Assembly: GCF_046119375.1 (NCBI RefSeq) | Contig: NW_027362767.1 | Coordinates: 403,868,001-403,932,000 of the forward strand | DNA: 64,000 bases | From: Phyllobates terribilis | Lineage: Eukaryota | Direction: 5' to 3' | Shown: piece after piece, positions 2,095 to 48,321 of the stretch | Numbering within the stretch: position 1 is the stretch's first letter | Layout of the letters: each line of letters begins with the position of its first letter | Position numbers and translations under genes: made by a program | Notes under the pieces: generated by a model | Databases searched by the model: none | What the model was told of the DNA's origin: nothing | What the model saw: only the letters and a program-made list of their open reading frames with translations

Positions 2095-3135
2095 TATATA
2101 ACCATATACGGCGAGCTCCCCCTTGTGGTGGCCGCATAAATCCGTATACAGCGAGTTCCCCCTAGTGGTGGCCGTATAAATCCGTAAACAGCGAGCACCC
2201 CCTAGTGGTGGCTGTATAAATCCATATGCAGTGATCTCCCCCTAGTGGTGGCTGTATAAATCCATATGCAGTAATCTCCCTCTAGTGGTGGCCGTATAAA
2301 TCCGTATACAGCGAGTACCCCCTAGTGGTGGCTGTATACATCCATATGCAGTGATCTCCCCCTAGTGGTGGCGGTACAAATCCGTATACAGCGAGCACCC
2401 CCTAGTGGTGGCCGTATAAATCCGTATACAGCGAGCACCCCCTAGTGGTGGCCGCATAAATCCGTATACAGCGAGCACCCCCTAGTGGTGGCCGTATAAA
2501 TCCATATACAGCGAGCACCCTCTAGTGGTGGCCGTATAAATCCATATACAGCGAGCACCCCCTAGTGGTGGCCGTATAAATCCATATACAGTGAGCACCC
2601 CCTAGTGGTGGCCGTATAAATCCATATGCAGCAAACTCCCCCTAGTGGTGGCCGTACAAATCCGTATACAGCGAGCACCCCCTAGTGGTGGCCGTATAAA
2701 TCCATATACAGCGAGCACCCTCTAGTGGTGGCCGTATAAATCCATATACAGCGAGCACCCCCTAGTGGTGGCCGTATAAATCCATATACAGTGAGCACCC
2801 CCTAGTGGTGGCCGTATAAATCCATATGCAGCAAACTCCCCCTAGTGGTGGCCGTACAAATCCGTATACAGCGAGCACCCCCTAGTGGTGGCTGTATAAA
2901 TCCGTATACAGCGAGCTCTCCCTAGTGGTGGCTGTATAAATCCATATGCAGTGATCTCCCCCTAGTGGTGGCTGTATAAATCCATATACAGTGATCTCCC
3001 CCTAGTGGTGGCTGTATAAATCCATATACAGTGCGCTCCCCCTAGTGGAAGCTGTATAAATCCATATACAGTGAGCTCCCCCTAGTGGTAGCTGTATAAA
3101 TCCATATACAGTGAGCTCCCCCTAGTGGTGGCTGC
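2095..3135. repeat. 40-bp minisatellite, about 26 units
   Basis: Unit ATAAATCCGTATACAGCGAGCACCCCCTAGTGGTGGCCGT repeats every 40 nt from about 2121 to 3121. Confidence 0.97.
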
Positions 3136-3772: not shown

Positions 3773-6422
3773 ATCCACATCGTATTACCCTGGCTGCTGC
3801 ATCATTCCCCTTATCATTACTGACTGTATAAATCTGTATGTAGAGAGCTCCCCCTAGTGGTGGGTGTATTACCCTGGCTGCTGCATCACTCCCCTTATCA
3901 TTACTGACTGTATAAATCTGTATGTAGAGAGCTCCCCCTAGTGGTGGGTGTATTACCCTGGCTGCTGCATCATTCCCCTTATCATTACTGACTGTATAAA
4001 TCTGTATGTAGAGAGCTCCCCCTAGTGGATGGTGCATTACCCTGGCTGCTGCATCATTTCCCTTATCATTACTGATTGTATAAATCTGTATGTAGAGATC
4101 TCCCCCTAGTGGTGGGTGTATTACCCTGGCTGCTGCGTCACTCCCCTTATCATTACTGACTGTATAAATCTGTATGTAGAGAGCTCCCCCTAGTGGTGGG
4201 TGTATTACCCTGGCTGCTGCATCATTCCCCTTATCATTACTGACTGTATAAATCTGTATGTAGAGAGCTCCCCCTAGTGGTGGGTGTATTATCCTGGCTG
4301 CTGCATCATTCCCCTTATCATTACTGACTGTATAAATCTGTATGTAGAGAGCTCCCCCTAGTGGTGGGTGTATTACCCTGGCTGCTGAATCATTCCCTTT
4401 ATCATTACTGACTGTATAAATCTGTATGTAGAGAGCTCCCCCTAGTGGATGGTGTATTACCCTTGCTGCTGCATCATTCCCCTTATCATTACTGACTGTA
4501 TAAATCTGTATGTAGAGAGCTCCCCCTAGTGGTGGGTGTATTATCCTGGCTGCTGCATCACTCTCCTTATCATTACTGACTGTATAAATCTGTATGTAGA
4601 GAGCTCCCCCTAGTGGTGGGTGTATTACCCTGGCTGCTGCGTCACTCCCCTTATCATTACTGACTGTATAAATCTGTATGTAGAGAGCTCCCCCTAGTGG
4701 TGGGTGTATTATCCTGGCTGCTGCATCACTCCCCTTATCATTACTGACTGTATAAATCTGTATGTAGAGAGCTCCCCCTAGTGGTGGGTGTATTACCCTG
4801 GCTGCTGCATCATTCCCCTTATCATTACTGACTGTATAAATCTGTATGTAGAGAGCTCCCCCTAGTGGTGGGTGTATTATCCTGGCTGCTGCATCACTCC
4901 CCTTATCATTACTGACTGTATAAATCTGTATGTAGAGAGCTCCCCCTAGTGGTGGGTGTATTACCCTGGCTGCTGCATCACTCCCCTTATCATTACTGAC
5001 TGTATAAATATATATGTAGAGAGCTCCCCCTAGTGGTGGGTGTATTATCCTGGCTGCTGCATCATTCCCCTTATCATTACTGACTGTATAAATCTGTATG
5101 TAGAGAGCTCCCCCTAGTGGTGGGTGTATTACCCTGGCTGCTGCATCATTCCCCTTATCATTACTGACTGTATAAATCTGTATGTAGAGAGCTCCCCCTA
5201 GTGGATGGTGTATTACCCTGGCTGCTGCATCATTTCCCTTATCATTACTGATTGTATAAATCTGTATGTAGAGATCTCCCCCTAGTGGTGGGTGTATTAC
5301 CCTGGCTGCTGCGTCACTCCCCTTATCATTACTGACTGTATAAATCTGTATGTAGAGAGCTCCCCCTAGTGGTGGGTGTATTACCCTGGCTGCTGCATCA
5401 TTCCCCTTATCATTACTGACTGTATAAATCTGTATGTAGATAGCTCCCCCTAGTGGTGGGTGTATTATCCTGGCTGCTGCATCATTCCCCTTATCATTAC
5501 TGACTGTATAAATCTGTATGTAGAGAGCTCCCCCTAGTGGTGGGTGTATTACCCTGGCTGCTGAATCATTCCCTTTATCATTACTGACTGTATAAATCTG
5601 TATGTAGAGAGCTCCCCCTAGTGGTGGGTGTATTACCCTTGCTGCTGCATCATTCCCCTTATCATTACTGACTGTATAAATCTGTATGTAGAGAGCTCCC
5701 CCTAGTGGATGGTGTATTATCCTGGCTGCTGCATCACTCTCCTTATCATTACTGACTGTATAAATCTGTATGTAGAGAGCTCCCCCTAGTGGTGGGTGTA
5801 TTACCCTGGCTGCTGCGTCACTCCCCTTATCATTACTGACTGTATAAATCTGTATGTAGAGAGCTCCCCCTAGTGGTGGGTGTATTATCCTGGCTGCTGC
5901 ATCACTCCCCTTATCATTACTGACTGTATAAATCTGTATGTAGAGAGCTCCCCCTAGTGGTGGGTGTATTACCCTGGCTGCTGCATCATTCCCCTTATCA
6001 TTACTGACTGTATAAATCTGTATGTAGAGAGCTCCCCCTAGTGGTGGGTGTATTATCCTGGCTGCTGCATCACTCCCCTTATCATTACTGACTGTATAAA
6101 TCTGTATGTAGAGAGCTCCCCCTAGTGGTGGGTGTATTACCCTGGCTGCTGCATCATTCCCCTTATCATTACTGACTGTATAAATCTGTATGTAGAGAGC
6201 TCCCCCTAGTGGTGGGTGTATTACCCTGGCTGCTGCATCACTCCCCTTATCATTACTGACTGTATAAATCTGTATGTAGAGAGCTCCCCCTAGTGGTGGG
6301 TGTATTACCCTGGCTGCAGAATCATTCCCCTTATCATTACTGACTGTATAAATCTGTATGTAGAGAGCTCCCCCTAGTGGATGGTATATTACCCTGGCTG
6401 CTGCATCATTCCCCTTATCATT
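3773..6422. repeat. 84-bp minisatellite, about 31 units
   Basis: Unit GTATTACCCTGGCTGCTGCATCATTCCCCTTATCATTACTGACTGTATAAATCTGTATGTAGAGAGCTCCCCCTAGTGGTGGGT; same phase at 3841 and 6361 (30 x 84). Confidence 0.97.
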
Positions 6423-7018
6423 AGGTGATTACTGACGTCTTATGACCTCCGCCTCTCCCTTTGGTTTTTTGTTACTGTTTACATATTGTTACTTTTTAAA
6501 AATTCAAATATTTAAATTTTGAAAAAATAAATAAATTGAATTTAAAATGAAGACAGCTGGAATCAGTGCGTCCGAAAGAGTCCGATCCATCCAGACAGAA
6601 AGTGATCGAACCTGCCCGGGAAACACCAGAAAGAAGAAGAAATCAAAACAAGAGAATGGCAGGTTATTCCTTCACCGCATCTCCCTAATAAAAACATCAA
6701 CATGTTCTATAAACCTCAAAGTGCATCAATAAAAATGTCAGATCGCCACCAAAAAACGAGCAGGAAAAGAAATTATATCTATCACAGAACTCAAGCAGTA
6801 GCCCAGGAAAAAAAATCATAAAAAGTTAAGGTTTTTTTTTTTGTTTCATTAAAAACAAAATATATATATTGTGTCTGACAGTAATTGTCTGGAGAATCCC
6901 ATTTCCAGGTCATTGCGGCCCCTGCTGGTCACATTGCGGTACTACACGTAGTTCCATGTTCCACTAGTAGCGGAGCAGAGCGCCCTCTGGTGTCCGGATC
7001 AGGCAGCTATTCTCTCAC

Positions 7019-23599: not shown

Positions 23600-24790
23600 G
23601 CCTCACCCTCCTGCAGTACATCACTCTTTTCAGCCCCTCTATTTACAGTCTCATCCTGCAGTGCCTCACAGCTCTTAGCCTCTCCATTTATCATGCTGCA
23701 GTACATCACCCCAGCCCCCTCTATGCAGCCCCATCCTACAGTATATTACTCTTCTCTGCCTCCTTTATTTACAGCACAATCCTGCAATACATAAATTCCG
23801 TCATCTATATACAGCCCAATCCTGTAGGACACCGCTCCTCTCAGTCCCATCCTGTAGTCTATAACTCCTGTCAGACCTTCTATAAACAGCCCTGTCCTCT
23901 AGTACAGGGTTCCCCAACTCCAGTCCTCAAGGCCCACCAACAGGTCATGGTTTCAGGATTTCCTTAGTATTGCACAGGTGATAATTACATCACCTGTGCA
24001 ATACTAAGGAAATCCTGAAAACATGACCTGTTGGTGGGCCTTGAGGACTGGAGTTGGGGAACCCTGCTCTAGTACATCATTGCATTCAGCCAAATTTTGC
24101 AGTCTATTACTCCTCATCTACAAACAGTCCCTCTATACACAGCCCCATCTGGCAGCATATCACTCATTTAATCCCCTCTATATACACCCTGCAGTATATT
24201 ACTCATCTATAAACAGTCCCTCTATACACAGACCCATCTGGCAGCATATCACTCATTTAATCCCCTCTATATACACCCTGCAGTACATTACTCCTCATCT
24301 ATATACAGTCCCTCTATATACAGCCCCACCCTGCAGTATATCACTCATTTAATCCACTCTATATACATCCAGTTGTATATTACTCCCCATCTATATACAG
24401 CCCCTCCCTGTAGTATATCACTCATTTAATCCCCTTCTATATACTTCCTGTGATATATTACTACTCATCTATATACAGTCCCACTATACACAGCCCCATC
24501 CGGAAGTACATCACTCACTTGATATCTTCTATATATATCCTGCTGTATATTACTCCTCATCTATATGCAATCCCTCTATATACATCCCCATTCTGCAGCA
24601 TATCACTCATTTAATATCCTCTATATTCATCCTGCAGTATATTACTCCATCTAGATACAGCCCCACCCTGCAGTATATCACTCATTTAATCCCCTCTATA
24701 TACTTCCTGCAATATATTACTCCTCATCTATATACAGTCCCTCTATACACAGCCCCATCCGGCAGTACATCACTCATTTGATATTCTCTA
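23600..24790. repeat. Degenerate G-poor tandem repeats
   Basis: Recurring CAGTATATCACTCATTTAATCCCCTCTATATAC and CCCTCTATACACAGCCCCATC blocks; strong strand bias. Confidence 0.75.
23905..24066. mobile_element. 162-bp palindromic hAT MITE
   Basis: Near-perfect fold-back CAGGGTTCCCCAACTCC...GGAGTTGGGGAACCCTG with exact 8-bp TSD CTCTAGTA. Confidence 0.92.
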
Positions 24791-27074: not shown

Positions 27075-30000
27075 TATAATGTGTGTGTATATATATATAC
27101 AATGTGTTAGTGGTTAAAAAAAATTATATATATTAGTGTATATATACTAACCTTAAATGTATATTTATTTATGGTCAGATGTTACAAAAAAAAATGCTGA
27201 CGTTTGTAAAATAAAAAAATAAATAAATTGGTGGCAGCTGATGCTTCTACCCACAATGGAAGAGGAGACCGTTAGAGGACACCAGCAGCAGTACGGAGGA
27301 ACACGAGTGGGTATATAGTACCACCATGGACCTGTTTTTTTATACATTTTGTTAGTAGTGAACAATCGCTATTTTAGCACTCAGTAGGGATCATTATGAA
27401 GGAAATAAGTGCCATAACGAGTCTCCAACCAAGCAGTCAGGAACAAAAACTGAGACTCATTATAAGGAGGTTCTGTCCTCTGTGATGTATGAGACGGAAG
27501 CAGTGGTCGCTCGTCTCGGCTTTATACTCCAGAGCCGCACTCACTATTCTGCCGGTGCAGTCACTGTGTACATACATTACATTACTGATCCTGAGTTACA
27601 TCCTGTGTTATACTCCAGAGCCGCACTCACTATTCTGCCGGTGCAGTCACTGTGCTCATACATTACATTACTGATCCTGAGTTACATCCAGTATTATACT
27701 CCAGAGCTGCACTCACTATTCTGCTGGTGCAATCACTGTGTACATACATTACATTACTGATCCTGAGTTACATCCTGTATTATACTCCAGACCTGCACTC
27801 ACTATTCTGCTGGTGCAGTCACTGTGCTCATACATTACATTACTGATCCTGTGTTACATCCTGTATTATACTCCAGAGCCGCACTCACTATTCTGCCGGT
27901 GCAGTCACTGTGTACATACATTACATTACTGATCATGCACTGATCCTGAGATACATCCTGTATTATCCTCCAGAGCTGCACTCACTATTCTGCTGGTGCA
28001 GTCACTGTGTACATACATTACATTACTCATCCTGAGTTACATCTTGTATTATACTCCAGAGCTGCACTCACTATTCTGCTGGTGCAGTCACTGTGCTCAT
28101 ACATTACATTACTGATCCTGAGTTACATCCTGTATTATACTCCAGAGCCGCACTCACTATTCTGCCGGTGCAGTCACTGTGCTCATACATTACATTACTG
28201 ATCCTGAGTTACATCCTGTATTATACTCCAGAGCTGCACTCACTATTCTGCTGGTGCAGTCACTGTGTACATACATTACATTACTGATCCTGAGTTACAT
28301 CCAGTATTATATTCCAGAGCTGCACTCATTATTCTGCTGGTGGAGTCACTGTGTACATACATTACATTACTGATCCGGAGTTATATCCTGTATTATACTC
28401 CAGAGCTGCACTCACTATTCTGCTGGTGCAGTCACTGTGTACATACATTACATTACTGATCCTGTGTTACATCCTGTATTATACTCCAGAGCTGCACTCA
28501 CTATTCTGCTGGTGCAGTCACTGTGCTCATACATTACATTACTGATCCTGAGTTACATCCTGTATTATACTCCAGAGCCGCACTCACTATTCTGCCGGTG
28601 CAGTCACTGTGCTCATACATTACATTACTGATCCTGAGTTACATCCTGTATTATACTCCAGAGCTGCACTCACTATTCTGCTGGTGCAGTCACTGTGTAT
28701 ATACATTACATTACTGATCCTGAGTTACATCCAGTATTATATTCCAGAGCTGCACTCATTATTCTGCTGGTGGAGTCACTGTGTACATACATTACATTAC
28801 TGATCCGGCGTTATATCCTGTATTATACTCCAGAGCTGCACTCACTATTCTGCTGGTGCAGTCACTGTGTACATACATTACATTACTGATCCTGTGTTAC
28901 ATCCTGTATTATACTCCAGAGCAGCACTCACTATTCTGCTGGTGCAGTCACTGTGTACATACATTACATTACTGATCATGCACTGATCCTGAGATACATC
29001 CTGTATTATCCTCCAGAGCTGCACTCACTATTCTGCTGGTGCAGTCACTGTGTACATACATTACATTACTGATCCTGAGTTACATCTTGTATTATACTCC
29101 AGAGCTGCACTCACTATTCTGCTGGTGCAGTCACTGTGCTCATACATTACATTACTTATCCTGTACTGATCCTGAATTACATCCTGTATTATACCCCAGA
29201 GCTGCACTCACTATTCTGCTGGTGCAGTCACTGTGTACATACATTACATTACTGATCCTGAGTTACATTCTGTATTATACTCCAGAGCTGCAATCACTAT
29301 TCTGCTGGTGCAGTCACTGTGTTCATACATTACATTACTGATCCTGAGTTATATCCTGTATTATACTCCAGAGCTGCAGTCACTATTCTGCTGGTGCAGT
29401 CACTGTGTACATACATTACATTACTGATCCTGTACTGATCCTGAGTTACATCCTGTATTATACTCCAGAGCTGCACTCACTATTCTGCTGGTGGAGTCAC
29501 TGAGTACATACATTACATTACTGATCCTGAGTTACATCCTGTATTATACTCCAGAGCTGCACTCACTATTCTGCTGGTGCAGTCACTGTGTACATACATT
29601 ACTGATCCTGAGTTACATCTTGTATTATACTCCAGAGCTGCACTCACTATTCTGCTGGTGCAGTCACTGTGTACATACATTACTGATCCTGAGTTACATC
29701 TTGTATTATACTCCAGAGCTGCACTCACTATTCTGCTGGTGCAGTCACTGTGTACATACATTACTGATCCTGAGTTACATCTTGTATTATACTCCAGAGC
29801 TGCACTCACTATTCTGCTGGTGCAGTCACTGTGTACATACATTACTGATCCTGAGTTACATCTTGTATTATACTCCAGAGCTGCACTCACTATTCTGCTG
29901 GTGCAGTCACTGTGTACATACATTACATTACTGATCCTGTGTTACATCTTGTATTATACTCCAGAGCTGCACTCACTATTCTGCTGGTGCAGTCACTGTG

Positions 30001-31102
30001 TACATACATTACATTACTGATCCTGTACTGATCCTGAGTTACATCCTGTATTATACCCCTGAGCTGCACTCACTATTCTGCTGGTGCAGTCACTGTGTAC
30101 ATACATTACATTACTGATTCTGAGTTACATCTTGTTGTAGCGTCGGCGTCCCTGCCCTCTGCTAGGCAGGGACGCTGTTCCCCTCACCTCTCCGCTCTGT
30201 GCCCGGCGTCCTCCTCCCGCTCTACTGGCAGCGCGCGCTGCTTACCGGCCACCGTGCTTAAGGCGCGCGCGCTCCCCCTCTCTTAAAGGGGCCGCGCGCG
30301 TCGTCCTAAGGAGTCCCCGGCCAATGGCCGGAGGACCTCACCATATATAAGGCACCTCCTCCAAAATGGAGGTGCCCGAGCAATGTTGTTGCATAGTCTA
30401 TCACTCTGCTTCAGCCCTCAGGTCCTGTTACCAGTTACCTGCCAGATTCCTGCTTGATACCTGCCTGATACTTGTCTATCTACTTGCATTCCTGCGGTCC
30501 GACAGTCTGCCTACCAGCCCTGCCAATCTGTCTATGGATCTGATTGCCCGCTCACCTGGGAGCGCTCATCTGCTACCTGCCTGCTAGCCTACCTGGAGTC
30601 TCTGCCGTCACGTGCTGTGACCACCTGCCTGTCCAGAGACTCTTACCCGCTCACCTGGGAGCGTCCGCCTGCTACCTGCCTGCTAGCCTACCTGGAGGCT
30701 CTGCCGTCACGTGCTGTGACCACCTGCCTGTCCAGAGACTCTTGCCCACTCACCTGGGAGCGTCCACCTGCTACCTGCCTGCTAGTCTATCTGGAGGCTT
30801 CGCCGTCACTTGCTGTGACCACCCGCCTGTCAAGAGACTGTTCCCGTCACTTGCCGTGACCTCCTGCCCTTCTACCCAGAGACTGTCCCCGTCACTTGCC
30901 GTGACCTCCTGCCCTTCTACCCAGAGACTGTCCCCGTCACTTGCCGTGACCTCCTGCCCTTCTACCCAGAGACTGTCCCCGTCACTTGCCGTGACTACCT
31001 GCCCGCCTACCCTGGGAGCCACCCGCTTCCTTACAAGGACTGCCCCTTTGTATCGTAGCTCAGAGGTTCCATCTCCCTGACCCGTTACAGTTTGCTCGGG
31101 CC

Positions 31103-32050
31103 GTGGAACCCGGTGGCACCCAAGCTCCCTCGCTCTCGGACCTATGTCATGAACTGTCCCGTCAAAGGTCCCAACAGGAGTCCATCCTGAGTCATCTGCG
31201 GAATGTCAACTCTCGCCTGGACACTCTGACTGCTCCACCAGCAACCACCGCTAGTGTCATGACTCGTAGCCCGGCAGCGCCGCTGCCCACCAATACCATG
31301 GCATCCTGCCCCGGACCCCGGCTTTCTGCACCTCCTCGCTTCGGAGGCGACCCCGCTCAAGCTCAGGGCTTCATAAACCAGTGCACCCTGCACTTTGAAC
31401 TCCTGTCCCACCAGTTTATCTCCGACCGGGCCAAAGTAGCCTTCATCATGTCCCATCTCACGGGGGAGGCACTGGCTTGGCTAAATCCTCTATGGGAGAG
31501 AGGAGACCCCCTGGTGTCCAACCTGCCAGCCTTTCTCATGGCTTTCCGGAAAGTCTTCGACGAACCCGGACGGAAGACCTCATCCGCATCATCTCTGCTA
31601 CGCCTCAATCAAGGAAATCTCACCGTGGGCCAATATGCCATACGGTTCCGTACCCTTGCTTCGGAGTTGGCCTGGGATAACGACGCCCTGGTGTCTGTCT
31701 TTTGGGAGGGTCTGTCCGGCCGTATTAAAGATGAACTCGCCGGTCGGGACATTCCTACCACTCTCGACGACTTAATAACTCTTGCCACCCGGATTGACAT
31801 CCGGTTCCAGGAACGCGCCAAAGAGGTCACCCGTGAGAGGAGGTTTCCACGTCTAGCCCCTACCTTTCAGAAATCCGTCACTTCTCCTACTCCCCAGGCG
31901 CACTCACCCGAGCCTATGCAGGTCGACCAGACCAAGATGGTCAAGACCCGTCAAGAGTTACGCCGAGCCGAGGGGAGCTGCTTCTACTGTGGCAGTAAGG
32001 AGCACCGGATCCGTTCCTGCCCAGAGAGGTCGGGAAACGCCTGTGTCTAG
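31103..32050 (+). CDS. Retrotransposon Gag
   Basis: Sushi/PEG10-like capsid ([25 protein letters not shown]) and CCHC knuckle [14 protein letters not shown]; begins with GTG rather than ATG. Confidence 0.9.
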
Positions 32051-35000
32051 GATCGCTCAGAGAGGTCGTCCTAGACAAGAGTAAACCCTCTCCATCTCTG
32101 TTGTTGTCGGTCTCTATCATCTGCGGGGAGAACCGTTATTTTGAACTAGCCCAACTTGACTCTGGAGCTGCCGGAAATCTCATTTCTCAGTCCCTGGTAG
32201 AGAAATACCGCATTCCCACCAAACCTCTGGCTGTACCCTTATCTGTCGCTGCCGTGGATGGGGGCCTCTTACCACATCCCATCCAACTCATCACCGAATC
32301 CATAACCCTGCAGGTGGGAATGCTGCACTCTGAGAGCATCTTCTTTCATGTTCTGCCTGGACTCTCTCACGCCCTCTTGCTAGGCCTACCTTGGCTTCAG
32401 AAACATGCACCCGTGCTTGATTGGCAGACCGGAGAAGTCCTTCGCTGGGGACAGGACTGCCATAAGACTTGTTTAGTTCCCGTCCATCCTATCCATCCTT
32501 CTCCTACCCCAACCAATCTACCTGGTCTTCCGGTTCCCTATTGGTCTTATGCGAACGTCTTTAATAAAAAGGAGGCAGAGACATTACCCCCTCATAGACC
32601 ATACGACTGCCCAATCGACCTGATGCCCGGCGCTACTCCTCCCCGTGGGCGTATTTACCCTTTGTCCGCTGCCGAGACCCGGTCCATGTCTGAATATATT
32701 GAGGAGAATCTGGCCCAGGGATTTATCCGGAAATCGACCTCCCCGGCGGGAGCAGGCTTCTTCTTCGTCAAAAAGAAGGACGGCTCACTCCGTCCCTGTA
32801 TAGACTATAGAGGCCTTAACCAGATCACGGTGAAGAATAAATACCCCCTTCCGCTCATTCCGGAATTATTTGACCGTCTGAGGGGGGCTAGAATCTTCAC
32901 CAAGCTGGACCTCCGTGGGGCGTATAACCTGATCCGTATCCGTCAGGGGGATGAATGGGAGACGGCATTCAACACCCGGGACGGCCACTATGAATATCTG
33001 GTAATGCCCTTCGGTCTCTGTAACGCTCCCGCCGTCTTTCAAGAGTTGGTCAATGACATCTTCCGGGACCTTCTCTACTCCTGCGTAGTGGTGTACCTGG
33101 ACGACATCTTGGTCTTCTCTCCGGATCTTCTCACTCACCGGAGGGATGTTCGTCAGGTCCTGCTCAGGCTCAGGCAGAACCACCTCTACGCTAAATATGA
33201 GAAGTGCCTCTTTGAGCAGACCTCGCTTCCGTTCTTGGGCTACATTATTTCTCAGACCGGCCTCTGAATGGATCCTGAGAAACTGTCTGCCATCCAGAAG
33301 TGGCCCCGACCAGAGGGGTTGAAGGCTATTCAGCGGTTCCTGGGCTTCGCCAACTACTACCGCCTCTTCATACCGCACTTCTCTTCCCGGACTGCTCCAA
33401 TCTCTGCGCTCACCCGTAAGGGTACTAATCCCAGAGAATGGCCGCCCGAAGCAGAGGAAGCCTTTCTTTCCTTAAAACAGGCTTTCTCTTCCGCCCCGGT
33501 GCTGCATCGTCCGGACGGCAACAAACAATTCTTCCTGGAAGTGGACGCCTCCTCCTCTGGAGCCGGAGCGGTACTTACCCAAAAGTCGTCTTCCGGAAGA
33601 ATGGTAACTTGCGGCTTCTTCTCCAAACTCTTCTCCCCTTCTGAGCGTAATTATTCTATAGGAGACCGAGAGTTATTGGCCATTAAGCTGGCACTGGAGG
33701 AGTGGCGTTACCTGCTCGAGGGGGCTCTTCACCCGGTAATTATTTACACGGACCACAAGAACTTGGCTTACCTCCAGAGCGCCCAGAGACTTAACCCGCG
33801 CCAAGCCCGGTGGTCCTTGTTTTTTGCCCGCTTTGATTTCACTCTTCATTTTCGCCCGGCAGACAAAAACATCAAAGCTGACGCCTTGTCCCGATCCTTC
33901 CTGGTGTCTGATCTAGAGGAGGAGCCTAAGGACATCATTGATCCCGCCAGAGTAATGCAGGTGGCCCCCGTGAATCTAAATCGTCTCCCTCCCGGTAAGA
34001 CGTCCGTAACAGTACCTGATCGGAAGAAGATCCTACACTGGGGTCACTCGTCTAAGCTAGCTGGCCACGCCGGTCAGAAAAAGACCCTCCAGCTTATTAC
34101 CCGGCATTACTGGTGACCTACCCTGCACAAGGACGTAATAGACTTTGTTTCAGCCTGTGTGTCCTGCGCCCGCAACAAGGTTCCGAGACATCTGCCAGCC
34201 GGTCGCCTCCTTCCTCTTCCAGTACCTGCTGCCCCGTGGCAGCATATAGCTATGGACTTTATAACGGATCTCCCTGTCTCTGCCGGTTGTAGGGTCATTT
34301 GGGTGGTCGCTGACCGCTTTTCCAAGATGGCTCACTTCACTCCCCTGCCGGGCCTCCCGTCTGCACCCGAGCTGGCTAAAGACTTTATCCGCCACATCTT
34401 CCGTCTCCATGGCCTGCCCCTCCACATCGTGTCGGATCGTGGGGTTCAGTTCACCTCACGCTTCTGGAGAGCCACATGTAAGCTGCTGGACGTCACCCTG
34501 GACTTCTCCTCCGCTTACCACCCACAGTCCAATGGTCAAGTGGAGCGGATCAATCAGATCCTGACCAGTTACCTCCGGCACTTCGTTAATGCCCACCATT
34601 CGGACTGGGTGGATCTCCTACCATGGGCCGAGTTCTCTTACAATAATCACGAGAGCGAATCTTCCTCCAAATCCCCGTTTTTTGTAGTCTTCGGTCAGCA
34701 TCCTCGGATCCCATTTCCCGTCTCCACCTCGGTGGACAATCCGGCTGCGGAATCTCTCGTTAGCGAATTCTCCTCCATTTGGGAGAGTACCCGATCCGCA
34801 CTCCTTCAGTCGTCCGAGCGGATGAAAAGACACGCTGGCAAAAAACGCCTGGATCCTCCACAATTCCGTCCTGGAGATAAAGTCTGGCTCTCGTCCAAGT
34901 ATGTCCGGATCAAGATTCCTTCCTACAAGTTAGGGCCTCGGTTCATCGGCCCACTGGAAGTTATCAAACAAATCAACCCAGTGGCCTATAAATTGAAACT

Positions 35001-35300
35001 CCCGGCCAACTTGCGGATCCCTAACTCCTTCCATGTATCTCTCCTCAAACCCGTGGTACTTAACTCTTTTTCCAAGTCTACAGGTACGCCTCCTGCTCCG
35101 GTTTCCGCTGAAAACGAGTTTGAGGTAGAGAACATTCTGGCCACCAAAAGGGTAAGAGGAAAGACCTTTTTTCTAGTGGATTGGAAGGGGTTTGGTCCTG
35201 AGGAGAGAACGTGGGAGCCCCGGGAGAACATCCATGCCCCTCTCATCCTTGATAAATTTCTGTCTGGCCTAAAAAATGGGGGGCCTAAAGGGGGGGGTAC
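32032..35300 (+). pseudogene. Retrotransposon Pol with two in-frame stops
   Basis: Protease LDSGAAG, RT YLDD, RNase H DAS, integrase zinc finger and DDE, chromodomain FEVENIL...FLVDWKGFGPEERTWEP; TGA at 33265-67 and 34114-16 in the same frame. Confidence 0.95.
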
Positions 35301-37776
35301 TGTAGCGTCGGAGTCCCTGCCTCCTGCTAGGCAGGGACGCTGTTCCCCTCACCTCTCCGCTCCGTGCCCGGCGTCCTCCTCCCGCTCTGCTGGCAGCGCG
35401 CGCTGCTTCCCGGCCACCGTGCTTAAGGCGCGCGCGCTCCCCCTCTCTTAAAGGGGCCGCGCGCGTCGTCCTAAGGAGTCCCCGGCCAATGGCCGGAGGA
35501 CCTCACCATATATAAGGCACCTCCTCCAAAATGGAGGTGCCCGAGCAATGTTGTTGCAAAGCCTTCACTCTGCTTCAGCCCTCAGGTCCCGTTACCAGTT
35601 ACCTGCCAGATTCCTGCTTGATACCTGCCTGATACTTGTCTATCTACTTGCATTCCTGCGGTCCGACAGTCTGCCTACCAGTCTGTCTATGGATCTGATT
35701 GCCCGCTCACCTGGGAGCGCTCATCTGCTACCTGCCTGCTAGCCTACCTGGAGGCTCTGCCGTCACGTGCTGTGACCACCTGCCTGCCCAGAGACTCTTA
35801 CCCGCTCACCTGGGAGCGTCCGCCTGCTACCTGCCTGCTAGCCTACCTGGAGGCTCTGCGGTCACCTGCTGTGACCACCTGCCTGTCCAGAGACTCTTGC
35901 CCGCTCACCTGGGAGCGTCCACCTGCTACCTGCCTGCTAGTCTATCTGGAGGCTTCGCCGTCACTTGCCGTGACCATCCGCCTGTCAAGAGACTGTTCCC
36001 GTCACTTGCCGTGACCTCCTGCCCTTCTACCCAGAGACTGTCCCCGTCACTTGCCGTGACCTCCTGCCCTTCTACCCAGAGACGGTCCCCGTCACTTGCC
36101 GTGACCTCCTGCCCTTCTACCCAGAGACTGTCCCCGTCACTTGCCGTGACTACCTGCCCGCCTACCCTGGGAGCCACCGCTTCCTTACAAGGACTGCCCC
36201 TTTGTATCGTAGCTCAGAGGTTCCACCTCCCTGACCCGTTACACTTGTATTATACTCCAGAGCTGCACTCACTATTCTGCTGGTGCAGTCACTGTGTACA
36301 TACATTACATTACTGATCCTGAATTAGACCCTGTATTATACTCCAGAGCTGCACTCACTATTCTGCTGTTGCAGTCACTGTGTACATACATTACATTACT
36401 GATCCTGAGTTACATCCTGTATTATACTCCAGAGCTGCACTCACTATTCAGCTGGTGGAGTCACTGTGTACATACATTACATTACTGATCCTGAGTTACA
36501 TCCTGTATTATACCCCAGAGCTGCACTCACTATTCTGCTGGTGCAGTCACTGTGTACATACATTACTGATCCTGAGTTACATCCTGTATTATACTCCAGA
36601 GCTGCACTCACTATTCTGCTGGTGCAGTCACTGTGTGCATACATAATATTACTGATCCTGTGTTACATCCTGTATTATACTCCAGAGCTGCACTCACTAT
36701 TCTGCTGGTGCAGTCACTGTGTATATACATTACATTACTGATCCTGAATTACATCCCGTATTATACTCCAGAGCTGCACTCACTATTCTGCTGGTGCAGT
36801 CACTGTGTACATACATTACATTACTGATCATGAGTTACATCTTGTATTATACCCCAGAGCTGCACTCACTATTCTGCTGGTGCAGTCACTGTGTACATAC
36901 ATTACTGATCCTGAGTTACATCCTGTATTATACTCCAGAGCTGCACTCACTATTCTGCTGGTGCAGTCACTGTGTACATACATTATATTACTGATCCTGT
37001 GTTACATCCTGTATTATACTCCAGAGCTGCACTCACTATTCTGCTGGTGCAGTCACTGTGTATATACATTACATTACTGATCCTGAATTACATCCTGTAT
37101 TATACTCCAGAGCTGCACTCACTATTCTGCTGGTGCAGTCACTGTGTACATACATTACATTACTGATCCTGAGTTACATCCTGCATTATACCCCAGAGCT
37201 GCACTCACTATTCTGCTGGTGCAGTCACTGTGTACATACATTACAGATCCTGAGTGACCTCCTGTATTATACTCCAGAGCTGCACTCACTATTCTGCTGG
37301 TGCAGTCACTGTGTACATACATTACTGATCCTGAGTTACATCCTGTATTATACTCCAGAGCTGCACTCACTGTGTACATACATTACATTACTGATCCTGA
37401 GTTACATCCAGTATTATACTCCAGAGCTGCACTCACTATTCTGCTGGTGCAGTCACTGTGTACATACATTACATTACTGATCCTATGTTACATCCTGTAT
37501 TATACTCCAGAGCTGCACTCACTATTTTGCTGTTGTCACCAACCTGTTACACTGTAGTGAGGTTACTCTCTGTCCGTATAGTGGTAAATGGGAGACTTAC
37601 ACAACAGTTTATTAACCTGGTGAACATGAGCTTAGAGTTTTATAAGTGAAATTTGCTTTATTTTCACAAATTTTGTGCAGAAAAGTAGAATTATAAAATA
37701 CTGTAAGTAAATAACTTTAGGTGGTTATACACAGGCCTATACATATATTATGTAAATCGTATATATAGTTCATGTA

Positions 37777-38502
37777 CAGTATTGTGCACAGGGTTTAGGC
37801 AGGTGTGGAAAATGCTGCACAGTGAGAAGCTTTAAAAAAAAAAAAAAAAAATAGAAGAAGTGTTAATATTTATTCGTATTGATCTGAAAAGTGAATGAAC
37901 AAAAGAAAAATGTAAATCACATCAATATATTTGGTGACCGCTCTTTGCCTTCATCAATTCTTCTCGGTACTTGTCAATTGTACACGGATTTTGAAAGAAC
38001 TCGGCAGGAGGTTGTTCCCAACATCTTGGAGAGCTGACCACAGATCTTCTAGTGCAAATCCTTCTGTCTCTTCATTCGATCACAGACTGGATGATGAGAT
38101 CAGGGCTCTGTGGGGGCCGAATCATCACTTGCAGGACTCCTTGTTCTTCTTTACACTGAAGATCGTTCTTTATGACATTGGTCGGATGTTTGGGGACGTT
38201 ATCCGGCTGCAAAATAAATTTGGAGCCAATCTGACGCCTCCCTGATGGATAAGTATCTGCTCAGCATTGAGGACGCCATTAATTCTGACCAAGTTCCCTC
38301 TTCCATTTTCTGTCTGGGATCACATGAAGAGATAGAAGAATTTGCACAAGTGACATCCACACAAGATCTGTGGTTAGTTCTCGAAGATGTTTGGAACAAC
38401 CTCCTGCTGAGTTCTTTTTTAGCTCATTCACTTTGCATTTTGGTAATAATAAACTATTAGCACTTATTTATGAATGCAGTCTCACTCTCTGTATTTCATT
38501 GT

Positions 38503-38900: not shown

Positions 38901-39440
38901 AAAGGGGTTGTTCAATACTTTCTATGATCCCCCCCAATGTATTCTCCCGGGGCCTATAACACTTTTTACAAATACCTTGCGATGCAGCTATTGCTGGCCG
39001 CTCACAGGCATCACGCGACCCCCGGCTGCAGCCGGCTCTGACATCCACTGACGTCATATCATGGTTCCGGATGCAGCCGGGGTTCTCTCTCTTCTGCGTT
39101 CCACAGGTGGATGCTGGGCTGTTGGCGGGGTTACCCCCCACGTCATACCCGGCATCCACCGCACGCTCTCCCTCTCCCCATTCATTGGGAAAGCATGTGG
39201 TGGATGCTGGGTGTGACGTGCTGGGTAACCCCGCCACAGCCCAACATCCACCACGGGGACCGTGTCACTGATGTCACGCCTCCCTTGACGTGACGTCAGC
39301 GGGGGGTCACGTGATGCCTGTGAGTGGCCAAGGAGAGCGCCGCTCACAGGCAGAAACTGCATCACAAGGTATTTGCAAAAAAGTCTTATATGTCCTGGGG
39401 GGATACATTGGGGCATAATATAAAGTAGTGAACATCTTCT
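38901..39440. mobile_element. Palindromic TTAA-target (T2/Kolobok-like) MITE
   Basis: TTAA flanks, AAGGGGTTGTTCAATACTTT / AAAGTAGTGAACATCTTCT ends; related copy at 48848-49387. Confidence 0.7.
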
Positions 39441-41565: not shown

Positions 41566-41985
41566 AACGCCGGGACGGGTCCCCCGAGTCCATTTGGCCC
41601 GCGACGCCGGGACGGGTCCCCCGAGTCCATTTGGCCCGCGACGGGTCCCCCGAGTCCATTTGGCCCGCGACGCCGGGACGGGTCCCCCGAGTCCATTTGG
41701 CCCGCGACGGGTCCCCCGAGTCCATTTGGCCCGCGACGCCGGGACGGGTCCCCCGAGTCCATTTGGCCCGCGACGGGTCCCCCGAGTCCATTTGGCCCGC
41801 GACGCCGGGACGGGTCCCCCGAGTCCATTTGGCCCGCGACGGGTCCCCCGAGTCCATTTGGCCCGCGACGCCGGGACGGGTCCCCCGAGTCCATTTGGCC
41901 CGCGACGGGTCCCCCGAGTCCATTTGGCCCGCGACGCCGGGACAGGTCCCCCGAGTCCATTTGGCCCGCGACGCCGGGCGGGTCC
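41566..41985. repeat. CpG-rich minisatellite (29-bp core, 66-bp dimer period)
   Basis: 12 copies of GACGGGTCCCCCGAGTCCATTTGGCCCGC with GACGCCGG inserted after alternate copies. Confidence 0.95.
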
Positions 41986-42954
41986 CGTTCTGTGTATTTG
42001 AGTTTAACATCCCTGCACTAGACAATTGTTCTGACTGGTGACTGTGTGAACAGGCCCAACAATCAAACCACTATCCATTTCATTATTACCGTTTGTTGGT
42101 GGTACAGCCCCTTGTTTAAAAAAAAAAAAAAAAAAAAATTAAAGCAAGTTTTTATGATAAAAAAATAACTTCAAAGGTTAAATCATTTTCAGATTTCAAG
42201 AAGAAAAAAAAATCTAAGTATATTTGTTATCCCTGCATCCGTGAAAGTCTAGTCAAGACACAAAAATACTTAACCAATGTGGTAAATGAAATATGGGGTA
42301 AAAAAAAAAAAAAATAAATAAAAATAAAAAATCGAAATGCCAGACCGAATTGCTGTTTTTTGGTCACCGCTCCTTCCCACAAAATGTAATAAAAAATAAA
42401 TAAAAAAAAAAAGTGATCAAAAAGCCTCTAATTGGTATCACTAAAAACGAGCTCCACGACGGCATAGATCAGTGTGGGGCCGGGGGAAAGAGAGCAGCTC
42501 TCTCTGTGATCGAAAGGACTGTGTGTCAGCGCTGAATCCGGACTATAAGAAGCACTCCCTTTTCAGCAAGATTTTTTTCTGGCTAAAAAATGCCTCTTCT
42601 AGTCGGAAAAGATCCTAGTTACTTACCGGTAACGGGATTTTACAGAGCCCATGACAGCACCACCTGAGAGAGGGTATCCGCCCACCAAGGACAGGAACCT
42701 ACTGAATAAAAAGGTGGTACCTCTCCTCCGCGTCAGTTTTGTTTCAGAGCATGAGAGGGCCTCCGAAGACAGGTTAATACATAACCACCACCTCAATATT
42801 TGTACTAAACACCTTAAAAAGTGCACACCACAGTGATAAAGGGGAGGGAATTAATAGGGTGCTGTCATGGGCTCTGTAAAATCCCGTTACCGGTAAGTAA
42901 TTAGGATCTTTTCCCCTTCTCCCATGACAGCACCACCTGAGAGATTTATAGAGA

Positions 42955-45797
42955 TCAAATACCAGAGGGAGGGATCACCGCTTGCAACACCCTTCTACCA
43001 AAGGACAGATCAGTAGAAGAGGAAAGGTCAAGACGGTAATGTTTGTAAAATGTAGCGGGGGATGACCAAGTTGCCGCCTTACATAAGATATCGATGGGCA
43101 CATCCACCTTCTCAGCCCAGGAAGCAGCTACCGCTCTGGTGGAATGGGCCTTCAGGTTCTCAGGAACCGGCAGATTGCTAGAAGAGTAGGCTAAGGTAAT
43201 AGTATCCCTGACCCATCTAGCTATGGTCCCTCTTGTAACCTTAAGTCCTTTCTTAGCCCCCTGAAAGGATATAAATAAGGCGTCACTCTTTCTCCAGGCT
43301 TTTGTCACTTCCAAATACTGGACTAACACCCTCTTAACATCTAAGGTGTGAAGCTTATGTTCCTCAGAATCCCTAGGATTAGGATAGAAGGAAGGGAGAG
43401 TGATTACTTGCGTCCTATAGAATTTGGAGGCTACCTTTGGAAGATAGGCCGGGTCTGGTCTTAAGATTACTCTATCCGTACATACTTGAGTGAATGGATG
43501 GTTAACGGATAGTGCATGTAAGTCACTGACTCTACGAGCTGATGTCAGGGCTACCAGTAGAGCAGTCTTTAAAGTTAAGATTTTTTTCTGAAACCTTCTC
43601 TAAGGGCTCGAAGGGAGGTTTGGTTAATGCTTCCAGAACTAAATTAAGGTCCCAAGGAGGCATTCTTGGAATAGGAATAGGTCTGGATCTATGACGAGCT
43701 TTAATAAATCTAATGATCCATCTATTTGCTGCCAAGTCATAATTTTACAGTGCCCCCAGAGCTGATACCTGCACCTTAAGAGTACTGGTGGCTAGTCCCA
43801 TATTTAACCCCTTCTGGAGGAATTCTAGTATGGCCTCAATAGGAATCCTCCCTTTGGCGGACTGACCCAAGGTAGACAAGAACTTAGCCCAGGTTCTACC
43901 ATAGATTCTAGTTGTTATCGGCTTTCTACTTGCCAGAAGGGTAGTAACAAGATCCGGAGAAAACCCCCTTTGCGTCAATAGCGACCGCTCAGAATCCAGG
44001 CCGTCAAATGCAGGCCCGCTCTTTGGGGATGACAGACTGGGCCCTGCCTGAGGAGATCCGGGATGTCCGGAAGAACCCATGGATCTGCTTGGGACATTCT
44101 CTTCATCCAAGTGAACCATGGTCTCTTGGGCCAGAACGGGGCGATCAATATAACCCTCGCCCGTTCCTCTCGGATCTTCCTCAGGATAGTAGGGATCAGT
44201 ACTAAAGGGGGAAAGGCATAAGCTAGAGTGAAATCCCACTGAATCTGCAGCGCGTCCACCGCAAACGCCCCCTTTTGGATTCAGGGAGCAAAAGGTCTCG
44301 GTCTTCCGATTGTGTCTGTTTGCAAATAGATCTATCTGGGGCTGTCCTCATAGACCCACAATCTGCTGAAAAACGTCTGGATTCAACTCCCACTCTCCTT
44401 GTTTCAAGATGTGACGACTCAAGAAATCGGCCTTTATGTTCTCTTCCCCTTTTATATGCAGCGCCGAGAGCGTAACCAGCAGACTCTCGGCAAACCTGAA
44501 GATCTGATCCGCTACTAACATCAGAGGGAGAGACCTGGTACCCCCCTGATGATTGATGTAGGCGACTGTTGATCTGTTGTCTGACATTATCCTGACGTGA
44601 GGACCCTGAAGAACAGAACTGAATTCTTTTAGAGCGTTTCTCGCTGCCAACAGCTCTTTCATGTTGGAAGAGAGACTTGTCTCGCTGTCCGACCAGAGGC
44701 CTTGTACAGAACGATCCCTTAGGTGAGCTCCCCAACCTTCTGCACTTGCGTCTGTTGTAATTGTATCCGACACCTGGAAGGTCCAAGGAACCCCCAAAGA
44801 TAGGTTGACCGGAGATGTCCACCAGTCCAGGGAGTTGATCACGACATCTGGAAGAGATATTTTCCCATTCAGACGACCTTTGAGCCGCCTGTCCGCTGCC
44901 AGAATCTCCTGTTGAAGACATCTGGAATGGTACTGGGCCCACTGAACCGCCGGGATGCAAGATGTCATTGTACCCAACAGAGACATTGCACTCCTCAGGG
45001 TCATGGTCGGATTGCTGATAACCTGAGATATTAGGGATCTGATCTTCAGCTTTTTTTCCTCTGGCAGAAGACAGGTTTGGTTTTCTGAGTCCAGAATGAG
45101 ACCCAGGAAAGACTGAACCCTCTTTGGTTCCAGCCTTGACTTCTCCAGATTTAACAGCCAACCTAGGCGTCTTAGACTGGCCATGACGTCCGCCAGGGCT
45201 AGAGCACAGAGTTGACTTGATCTGCCCACTACTAAGAAGTCGTCCAGATAAGGGATGACCAGAATATCTCTTTCCCTCAAGTGCGCTGTGACCTCCAGAA
45301 TAATTTTTGTGAAGACCCTCAGCGCCATGGAAATGCCAAAGGGAAGAGCTGCGAACTGAAAATGCCTTACGTGCCTGCCGAATTGTACAGCTACTCTTAG
45401 AAACTGTTGATGATCTGGCCAAATCGGGACGTGGTAGTAGGCGTCCTTCAGATCGAGGACGCACATAAAACAGTCCGGAAATAACATCTTTATGGCCGAT
45501 TTTATGGTTTCCATCTTGAACGGCCTGTAGATTAAATGGTCGCTCAGCCTCTTTAAGTTCGCAATGGTCCTGAAGGAGCCGTCCGGCTTCTTTATTAGGA
45601 AGAGAGTCGAATAGAATCCTCTTCCTTGCTCGGGTGCAGGTGTTTCCACCAGAACTCCTTTCATGAGCAGAGAGAGAACTTCCTGCTGTAAGGCTATCTG
45701 TTCCGCTAAACTCCTGGGGGCTGATATTTTGACAGTGTTCTTGGGCCTGCTTTTGAACTCTAATGTGAGCCCCCTCCTGACTATCCCTAGGATCCAA
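42955..45797 (-). pseudogene. DIRS tyrosine recombinase ORF, frameshifted
   Basis: KAHSTRAVAASWA...ATWSSPATFYKHY catalytic motifs; PPWDLNLVLEAL; overlaps the RT ORF in another frame; several frame breaks. Confidence 0.88.
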
Positions 45798-45871
45798 GAA
45801 TTGGATGAAATTTCCTTCCAGGCAGGCAGGAAGTGGGACAATCTTCCTCCCACCTGGGGGGGAACTGTCAC
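43975..45871 (-). pseudogene. DIRS RT / RNase H / methyltransferase-like ORF
   Basis: LDLKDAYYHVPI, LPFG, YLDD, TTDAS, DLFA and YAFPP motifs; stop at 44348 and a frameshift near 44270. Confidence 0.92.
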
Positions 45872-46032
45872 TTAGGGGCTTTCTTATTCTCGGAGGAGGG
45901 ACCCCCGAACATGAAGCCTCTGTTATACGGCTTTCTGTCTTTCCAGCTACCTTGGACTCTGGGAGCTTTACTGCGGCTGTATTTTCTCTTCCGAAAGGAG
46001 CTGTTAAACCGGGAACCAGTCACCGTGGGAAA

Positions 46033-47366
46033 TCAATGTTTTTTGTCTGCGGCTTTATCTAGGATGTCATCTAGACCTTTGCCGAACAAGAAGTCCCCCT
46101 CACAAGGGATTGAGCACAGTTTAGACTTTGACTGCACATCCCCTGACCAGCTCTTGAGCCATAGCGCCCTACGGGCTGCATTAGAGAGGTTTGCAGACCG
46201 GGCAGCCAGCCTAACTGAATCTGCCGATGCATCTGCCAGGAATGCAGCCGCTCCCTGCACAAGAGGAAGGTCCGATAGAATTTTCTCCCTGGACACATTC
46301 CCCCTAATCTGGTCTTCCAATTGTTGAAGCCAGATCATCATAGATCTAGCGGTGCAGGTGGCTGCTACTGCCGGTTTAAGGGCCCCTGCTGACGACTCCC
46401 AGGCTTGTTTAAGGAAGGACTCCGCTTTTTTATCCAGCGGGTCTTTTAAGGCTCCTAAATCGTCAAAGGGCAGAGTGGATTTTTTTGAAGATTTTGAAAT
46501 GGCCACGTCAATCTTAGGGGTTTTGTCCCATTTAGCCGCATCCTCATCCTCAAAGGGGTACCTCCGCTTGGAGGATGACGGCAGCTGACCCTTCCTCTCC
46601 GGTTTCTTCCATTCCCTTTCTATCAGAGATTTAATCCTGTCATTGACCGGGAATGAGCGTCTCCTCCTTTGGTCTAAGCCCCCGAACATAACATCCTGGA
46701 CTGTTCTGGGCACCTTGGTATCGGTAATACCCATAGTCCCTCTGACGGCTTTAACTAGTCTCTCAGTATTATCAACCGAAAAACAAGGTCTGCCCCCCCC
46801 CCATCATCATCCGAAGACTCCGATGATGATGAGGAGAGATTAGAGGAGGAAGGCAGTTCTCTTGCAAAACGGGACTCCACTGATTCCTCTGATTTTGAAG
46901 AAACTAGTTTTCGCTTCTTCTTTTTGCGTGAGGTTAAGCCTCTTAAAGACTCTCTGACCTCTGTTTGGATTAGATCCTTTAATTCTAAAGAAAACCTATG
47001 GGACTCCTCTGCAATGGTTTTCTGAATACAGTCCGAGCAAAGGTTTTTGGCATAGGAGGTGGGAAGACCGATTTTGCATAAAGCACACTCCCTGTTTTTA
47101 CTTTTAGCACTACACTTCGCCTCCGGAGGCGGTGGTTGCCGTTCACATGAGGGCTCCCATCTGGCGGAGGTGGACTGACGAAGTCTTTTCTGACCAGTCT
47201 TGCCGGAACTCGCACGCCCTCCACTGCTGTGACTTTGTCGATGGGAAGATTCTCGATGCTCCACTTGCTTAAGCTGCTTGCGCTGCTTTGATGGCTGTGG
47301 CTGCTGCTGTACCTCCTGTGGCGGTGACAGATGCTGCCCAGGTGACTGCGGCTCCTCATTCATCAT
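46033..47366 (-). pseudogene. DIRS gag (Cys-finger plus LAP2alpha-like domain), frameshifted
   Basis: ATG 47366 in good Kozak context; CALC...CSDC; RRYPF...WDKTPKID...LKDPLDKKAE; frame change near 46750. Confidence 0.8.
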
Positions 47367-47451
47367 GGCGGGGATGCAGACACCGCCATCTTGATTGCTT
47401 CCCATCCTTAAAAGCAGTAGGGCTCCACCCCTTCCGGCAGCGTGCTCATTT

Positions 47452-47482
<31 letters not shown>

Positions 47483-48321
47483 TATTTTTTTTAAATTTAG
47501 CCAGCTGGCGCGCTACACCGCAGATCCGCTCCCTTCTGCGCGTGCGCAGCCCAGCGGCACCCGGCGCGCTTGCAGCGGGATGACGGCTTCCCGGACTTCC
47601 GGCGCGCTCCGTCACAGGGTGCGACGCGACCCCCACGTGCGCAGACCCAGAAGACCTGCCGGCCGGCCCGCTCAGCTAGTCTTGCGAGGCGCAGACCCGG
47701 CCGCAGGCCCCGGTGCACGCGGGGAGGAATCAAAAAAACAGTACCTCCTCCCCACACGCAGACCCGGGCAGCAGCCAGATGGGCTGGGAACAGGGACCAT
47801 CTGCTGCTTCCACGGCCTCCAGGCCGCACCGTCCATAATCCAGGTACGTAAGGTACCACCTGGTGAGGCTCCCATCAGGGACAGGAACCAAAACTGATGC
47901 GGAGGAGAGGTACCGCCTTTTTATTCAGTAGGTTCCTGTCCTTGGTGGGCGGATACCCTCTCTCAGGTGGTGCTGTCATGGGAGAAGGGGAAAAATACGG
48001 TATTTGGTCTCGCTGTAATCACACTGACCTGAAGAATCAAGATACCAGGTAAAGTTTATCGCAAAATGAAAACGAAACAAACACGAAAGAAAAAAATGGC
48101 AGAACTATTTTTTTTCTAACTTGGAATTTTTGTTTCCAATATATTAATGGGTAAAGTGAATCGAGTCATTCAACTAGTCACAAAATACCAGCCTCTGTAT
48201 GGCTACGTAGATGGAAGTAGGGGAGGAAAAAAAAACAAAAAAACGAAAGTGCAAAAATAACAACTGGCTCCAAAGGGAAGGGGTTAATAGAGCCCGGTAC
48301 AAGGAAGTGGCCGAGTCTCAC

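Follow-up and report, generated by a model that had tools for sequence, protein, structure and literature searches.

The locus raises the question of how an LTR retrotransposon of the frog Phyllobates terribilis primes its reverse transcription. The original prediction held that no TGG-type tRNA primer site follows the 5' LTR, that the 10-mer found there is the complement of a 10-mer near the expected start of the transcript, and that the element primes itself in the manner of Tf1. The window is the whole 64-kb stretch of DNA that was analysed, and unprefixed positions refer to it. The element is a Ty3/gypsy chromovirus, as seen from its LTRs, its target-site duplication (TSD), gag followed by protease, reverse transcriptase (RT), RNase H and integrase, and its chromodomain. 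Its features are the following.

30136-36243, plus strand: Ty3/gypsy chromovirus LTR retrotransposon, 6.1 kb, with TG..CA LTRs and a 5-bp TSD
30131-30135, plus strand: left TSD, CTTGT, with an identical 5-mer at 36244-36248
30136-31089, plus strand: 5' LTR, 954 bp, TG..CA, with 99-bp and 45-bp tandem repeats past the predicted start
30321-30325, plus strand: CCAAT box, predicted promoter element (sequence motif)
30344-30350, plus strand: predicted TATA box, TATATAA (sequence motif)
30351-30376, plus strand: 9-bp inverted repeat from the TATA box to +3, arms 30351-30359 and 30368-30376
30374-30383, plus strand: predicted self-primer GCCCGAGCAA, the first 10 nt of the predicted RNA, beginning at the predicted start
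31065-31071, plus strand: U5 7-mer complementary to 31104-31110, a candidate U5-leader stem beside the primer duplex
31090-31091, plus strand: 2-nt spacer GT separating the LTR from the primer site, with AC at 35299-35300 as its mirror
31092-31101, plus strand: primer binding site TTGCTCGGGC, exact complement of 30374-30383
31103-32050, plus strand: gag (capsid, DUF4939, CCHC knuckle), with the start codon altered in the window copy
32032-32038, plus strand: heptamer GGGAAAC, where gag and pol overlap, with pol in the -1 frame and a predicted frameshift
31999-35451, plus strand: pol (protease, RT, RNase H, integrase, SH3, chromodomain), with in-frame stops at 33265 and 34114
35271-35298, plus strand: polypurine tract region (sequence motif)
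35301-36243, plus strand: 3' LTR, 943 bp, with a duplicate of the hairpin at 35516-35541 and of the 10-mer at 35539-35548
36244-36248, plus strand: right TSD, CTTGT

The TATA box and both 10-mers lie exactly where they had been predicted, the second 10-mer being the exact complement of the one that stands 30 nt after the box, and TTGCTCGGGC occurs once in the 64-kb window. The altered Gag start codon and the two in-frame stops in pol make the window copy defective. Its two LTRs differ by 18 mismatches and 4 indels (~98% identity). A Pfam search found retrotransposon Gag, protease, RT, RNase H, integrase, SH3 and chromodomain in the element, the chromodomain (PF00385, E 6e-12) at the integrase C-terminus. 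The closest relative of its RT with a solved structure is the Ty3 RT, and the named homologues of its Gag include anuran and medaka proteins. The heptamer in the gag/pol overlap presumably resembles the PEG10 site. The insertion splits an 86-bp satellite with 81-bp variants (27522-30135 and 36238-37532), with about 30 units on the left and 13-15 on the right; the tandem repeats of U5 are found at 30547-31012.

The junction pattern gave 17,378 matches in the 10.6-Gb genome and none with the reversed control, and among the 100 matches listed nearly all belong to the family of the window element. With such patterns and Gag queries, the latter returning mostly the dominant family, 200 loci were gathered; a loose pattern also gave many matches that had no Gag downstream and were discarded. 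An LTR-site-Gag junction was present in 166 of the loci (34 dropped), and removal of 30 duplicates left 136 unique copies. Further removal of 27 unanchored copies, and of 66 thinned by flank similarity, gave the 43 thinned copies, and 3 register-slipped copies (L086, L138, L181) were removed before the tree and the folding, leaving 40. The gag tree of these 40 copies separates clade I (23 copies, the window family among them) from clade II (17 copies) with moderate support (88/74). Gag matches recur every 5.2-5.6 kb at G000:C1:959197800-959209536, C2:866923057-866934370 and C9:384840280-384851509, a spacing that suggests elements in tandem with LTRs in common, an arrangement described for Tf1/Tf2 in the available text of PMC11042837.

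The primer site begins 2 nt past the end of the 5' LTR rather than flush with it. The GT spacer is found in 113/136 junctions and is mirrored by the AC that follows the polypurine tract, just before the 3' LTR. The duplex comprises 10 bp and is not extended at either side: among the 43 thinned copies, position -1 is paired in none, and positions 11 and 12 are Watson-Crick in 5 and 4, respectively. At the predicted start, a pyrimidine-purine step occupies -1/+1 in 107 of the 109 anchored copies, and an A/T-rich box stands at the matching distance in the anchored relatives. The stretch of LTR between motif and site ranges from 250 to 1190 nt among relatives, with both motifs kept.

The matrices for anchoring the LTR motif drew on nothing but the 34 nt that precede it, the 10-mer itself being excluded, and they placed it in 109/136 junction copies with scores above the maximum of the reverse-strand null. 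Nine or ten Watson-Crick pairs form in 79 of these 109 copies (10 pairs in 58, 9 in 21), and at most 5 form in the unanchored copies. The 43 thinned copies have a mean of 7.53 pairs with their own site. When sites are swapped the mean falls to 6.20, or to 6.98 if the swaps stay within clades, and 0/10,000 swaps reached the own-site mean. The pairing exists in a single register; sliding it by 1-4 nt leaves 1.5-3.0 pairs in the same copies. Perfect pairs with other letters are GCCCGTGCAA (L071), GCCTGAGCAA (L160), GCCTGTACAA (L093) and GCCTGAGCTT (L168, L190), each facing its own complement. Across the 40 copies, positions 4, 5, 6 and 10 each show two types of Watson-Crick pair and positions 7 and 9 each show three, and the gag tree requires 2-6 changes at each of these six positions.

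Copies selected by the site alone give the same picture. A search for the position-6 variant of the site returned 2,315 matches and none in the control; of the first 30, which were analysed, 2 unanchored and 2 slipped copies were left out. In the 26 in register, the motif has T at position 6 in every copy, compared with A in 30/30 window-type copies. Position 4 of the motif also tracks its partner (14/15 and 6/9 copies with T or C, 2 copies with A left out; Fisher p 0.004), with the reservation that Fisher values overstate the number of events because related copies share ancestry. The two 10-mers accordingly vary in step, as the original prediction would have it. The signal is uneven: in clade II alone, own pairs (6.20) and swaps (6.06) are close and 3148/10,000 swaps reach the own mean; independent-pair tests on the gag tree of 40 copies gave significance at no position; and the partner changed in the opposite way about as often or more at positions 4, 8 and 9. 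We read the weak signal on the tree and in clade II as putative CpG decay in old copies, and the one-sided mismatches of many young copies as putative decay after insertion. Compensatory changes in subfamilies that number thousands of copies give comparative weight to what had been a resemblance within one sequence.

It is therefore very likely that the element primes reverse transcription in the Tf1 style, using as primer the 10 nt with which its RNA is predicted to begin; covariation, the pyrimidine-purine start and the lack of TGG all support the self-priming that had been proposed. In this scheme, transcription would start at the predicted G at 30374, and nucleotides 1-10 would fold onto 31092-31101, probably aided by the U5-leader stem, which together with the primer duplex would make a pseudoknot. 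If the analogy with Tf1 holds, the RNase H of the element would cut after nucleotide 10 to yield a 3'-OH. Synthesis would then copy GT and U5, so that the cDNA would end in AC-TG..CA-GT, and integrase would trim these ends by 2 nt.

Folding predictions bear on the stems around the primer. The primer duplex is present in the minimum free energy (MFE) structure of 30374-31140. In the window copy its ensemble probability is 0.14, and it is partly missing from the centroid, in a model that is free of pseudoknots. Among 16 hand-picked relatives, the probability is 0.41-1.00 in 13, 0.20 in 1 and 0.00 in 2. When the RNA begins at 30365 or further upstream, the predicted duplex is lost. The 7-mer stem between U5 and leader has a predicted probability of 0.44 in the window copy when the site is held unpaired. 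With the site unpaired, pairing of the Gag-start region and leader with U5 reaches 0.59 compared with 0.37 for shuffled U5 and is higher in 34/40 copies, a result partly biased because one sampling search selected on these motifs. The variable pair of the 7-mer in 34 copies is T-A in 6, G-C in 22 (a class partly selected by the sampling search), G-T in 3 and mismatched in 3. The LTR-end stem with U5, which corresponds to the third duplex of Tf1, appears in single MFE structures and reaches 0.38 compared with 0.39 after shuffling. The U5-leader pairing beats the shuffles and the LTR-end stem does not; therefore two of the three Tf1 duplexes are supported.

A real and selected pairing might have another role, such as packaging, dimerisation, control of Gag translation, or priming that does without the RNase H cut of the Tf1 type. 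What the sequences demonstrate is the pairing alone; moreover, the Gag start lies 1 nt downstream of the site, the U5 stem covers the site, primer length and spacer are unlike those of Tf1, and the third duplex lacks support. However, the site is placed where a primer must end, the GT spacer has its mirror in the AC behind the polypurine tract, and the element is without any other primer site, which together render such a role improbable.

Still less probable is a host RNA primer, for example a tRNA fragment without CCA, with the match to the LTR being incidental. In none of the 136 junction copies, some of which came from patterns that fix part of the site, does a TGG begin at most 5 nt from the LTR end; the original prediction was right on this point, and priming by a full tRNA is excluded because TGG is absent. 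Half-tRNA priming is known from copia lineages (PMC6317226, in its available text), so that a fragment has to be considered. A genome-wide search for the 10-mer followed by a T-loop motif within 2-32 nt, by exact match and in this one geometry, gave 0 matches. An Rfam search for tRNA gave 63 matches, and all 30 loci fetched were tRNA-Lys(TTT); tRNA-fragment priming can be called unlikely at most because this sample is a single isotype. Against a host primer stands further the site itself, six of whose positions change together with the LTR motif, as a fixed host primer would not require. The tRNA-Lys(TTT) genes (L201-L230) form large tandem arrays at G000:C1 ~817.2-817.9 Mb and C11 ~574-575.8 Mb, many of them ~1.05 kb apart.

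Chance complementarity in a G+C-rich LTR has a negligible probability: the 10-mer arose anywhere in the LTR in 17/20,000 mononucleotide shuffles (about 1 in 1,200 for 950 bp, with many elements scanned) before its position at TATA+30 was required, and the fixed place after the TATA box, the single register and the compensatory changes refute it.

The inverted repeat between TATA box and start had been noted alongside the self-primer. Its arms (GGCACCTCC at 30351-30359 and GGAGGTGCC at 30368-30376) are exact, but it does not lie within the priming duplex. The predicted hairpin (-19.7 kcal/mol) covers the first 3 primer bases. It was considered as part of the priming structure and rejected, because it is upstream of the predicted start, is lacking in clade II and competes with the duplex in folding: when the RNA is extended to 30350, the hairpin has a probability of 0.97 and the primer duplex 0.00. 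A hairpin of -5 kcal/mol or below is found in 22/23 copies of clade I and 2/17 of clade II, a conservation that is partly due to selection because the anchor matrix was trained on the hairpin stretch; clade II keeps the primer layout. Covariation of the hairpin in fixed register is almost nil, with one double change in the outer pair. This sole double change belongs to a subfamily (L038, L040, L076-L079, L081) in which a change just after the TATA box adds one hairpin pair.

The hairpin would exist only in RNA that contains U3, namely the 3' LTR copy and read-through transcripts, and would not be required for priming. It may mask the primer duplicate of the 3' LTR or serve polyadenylation through the TATA box, or it may be merely promoter sequence. 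That it acts as a lock in U3-containing RNA, restricting priming to correctly initiated 5' ends, is possible and rather doubtful. Under this reading, the hairpin may bury the first bases of the primer duplicate, both in the 3' LTR and in read-through RNA. A second possible effect is that the fold brings the TATA box near enough to a poly(A) site to act as the missing signal, because none of the five poly(A) hexamers tested was found after +1. If the lock is true, then together with the 10-nt primer and the trimmed 2-nt spacer it would amount to a vertebrate form of self-priming that has a built-in quality control.

Self-priming as a mechanism is already known. Tf1 primes with its first 11 bases, RNase H cutting between 11 and 12 (PMC7175516), and its primer-site and tract motifs occur at cDNA ends (PMC11042837); Tf2 requires an upstream start, as determined by CAGE and RACE (PMC5341516). 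Self-priming is regarded as a common feature of the Tf1/sushi group, vertebrates included (PMC10085805, PMC6317226, PMC4600332). For the vertebrate members it was inferred by Butler 2001 (cited in the same three papers), who also named the three-duplex 'pretzel' (as cited in PMC10085805). Self-primers are described for yeast and vertebrate Tf1/sushi elements (PMC6317226), self-priming is implicated 'from fungi to vertebrates' (PMC4600332), and the end motifs of sushi LTRs are given in PMC3601003. Tf1/sushi members outside the fission yeasts mostly use -1 frameshifting (PMC10085805). As far as the available text of these sources goes, self-priming is proven only for Tf1, is inferred for Tj1 and Tosmo1-3, and is inferred or implicated for vertebrate elements.

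Of the traits of the Tf1/sushi group, the frog element shows the lack of a tRNA-type site, a covarying LTR motif, a CCHC Gag, a -1 gag-pol arrangement and, as a prediction, the duplex of U5 with the leader. With the V-clade of GyDB (sushi-ichi, Amn-ichi/ni/san), it shares a vertebrate host, a chromodomain integrase, a CCHC Gag, pol in -1, the lack of a tRNA site and a site that can pair with the predicted 5' end of the RNA. Common to it and Tf1/Tf2 of Schizosaccharomyces pombe are the pairing of 5' end and site, the U5-leader duplex and the order RT-RNase H-integrase-chromodomain. In contrast, the Tf1 primer has 11 nt (PMC7175516, available text) and that of the frog element 10 nt; the Tf1 site is apparently flush with the LTR (in our interpretation of the available text of PMC11042837), whereas the frog element has the 2-nt spacer; and Tf1 has one ORF without CCHC (PMC10085805, available text), whereas the frog element has CCHC and gag/pol. 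The third Tf1 duplex is also without support in the frog element, whose U5 contains tandem repeats and is several hundred nt long. The predicted priming layout is shared by plant Tcn1 chromoviruses and TAR copia elements, which belong to other hosts and lineages and for which self-priming is predicted (12% of the elements surveyed in PMC6317226, as far as its available text goes).

A literature search returned no report of an amphibian family or of covariation; this blank is a weak one, one 'pretzel' paper having been missed by the text search. Beyond what is cited from Butler 2001 in the available sources, the present analysis adds the covariation data, the 10-nt primer with its 2-nt spacer, and the clade-limited hairpin, which is predicted to mask the primer in any RNA containing U3. 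It also gives exact predictions: a start at one G, a primer of 10 nt and cDNA extensions of 2 nt. Self-priming would imply that a very successful vertebrate LTR lineage lies beyond the reach of tRNA-fragment silencing through the primer site.

Other features of the window include minus-strand ORFs at 42955-47675 with LAP2alpha and tyrosine-recombinase-like matches, likely a DIRS-type element. Minisatellites at 3782-6423, 2095-3132 and 41567-41986 (84, 40 and 37/66 bp, respectively) give rise to long spurious ORFs. Long inverted repeats at 42605-42914, 37994-38417, 23899-24072 and 38995-39330 are likely MITE-like elements.
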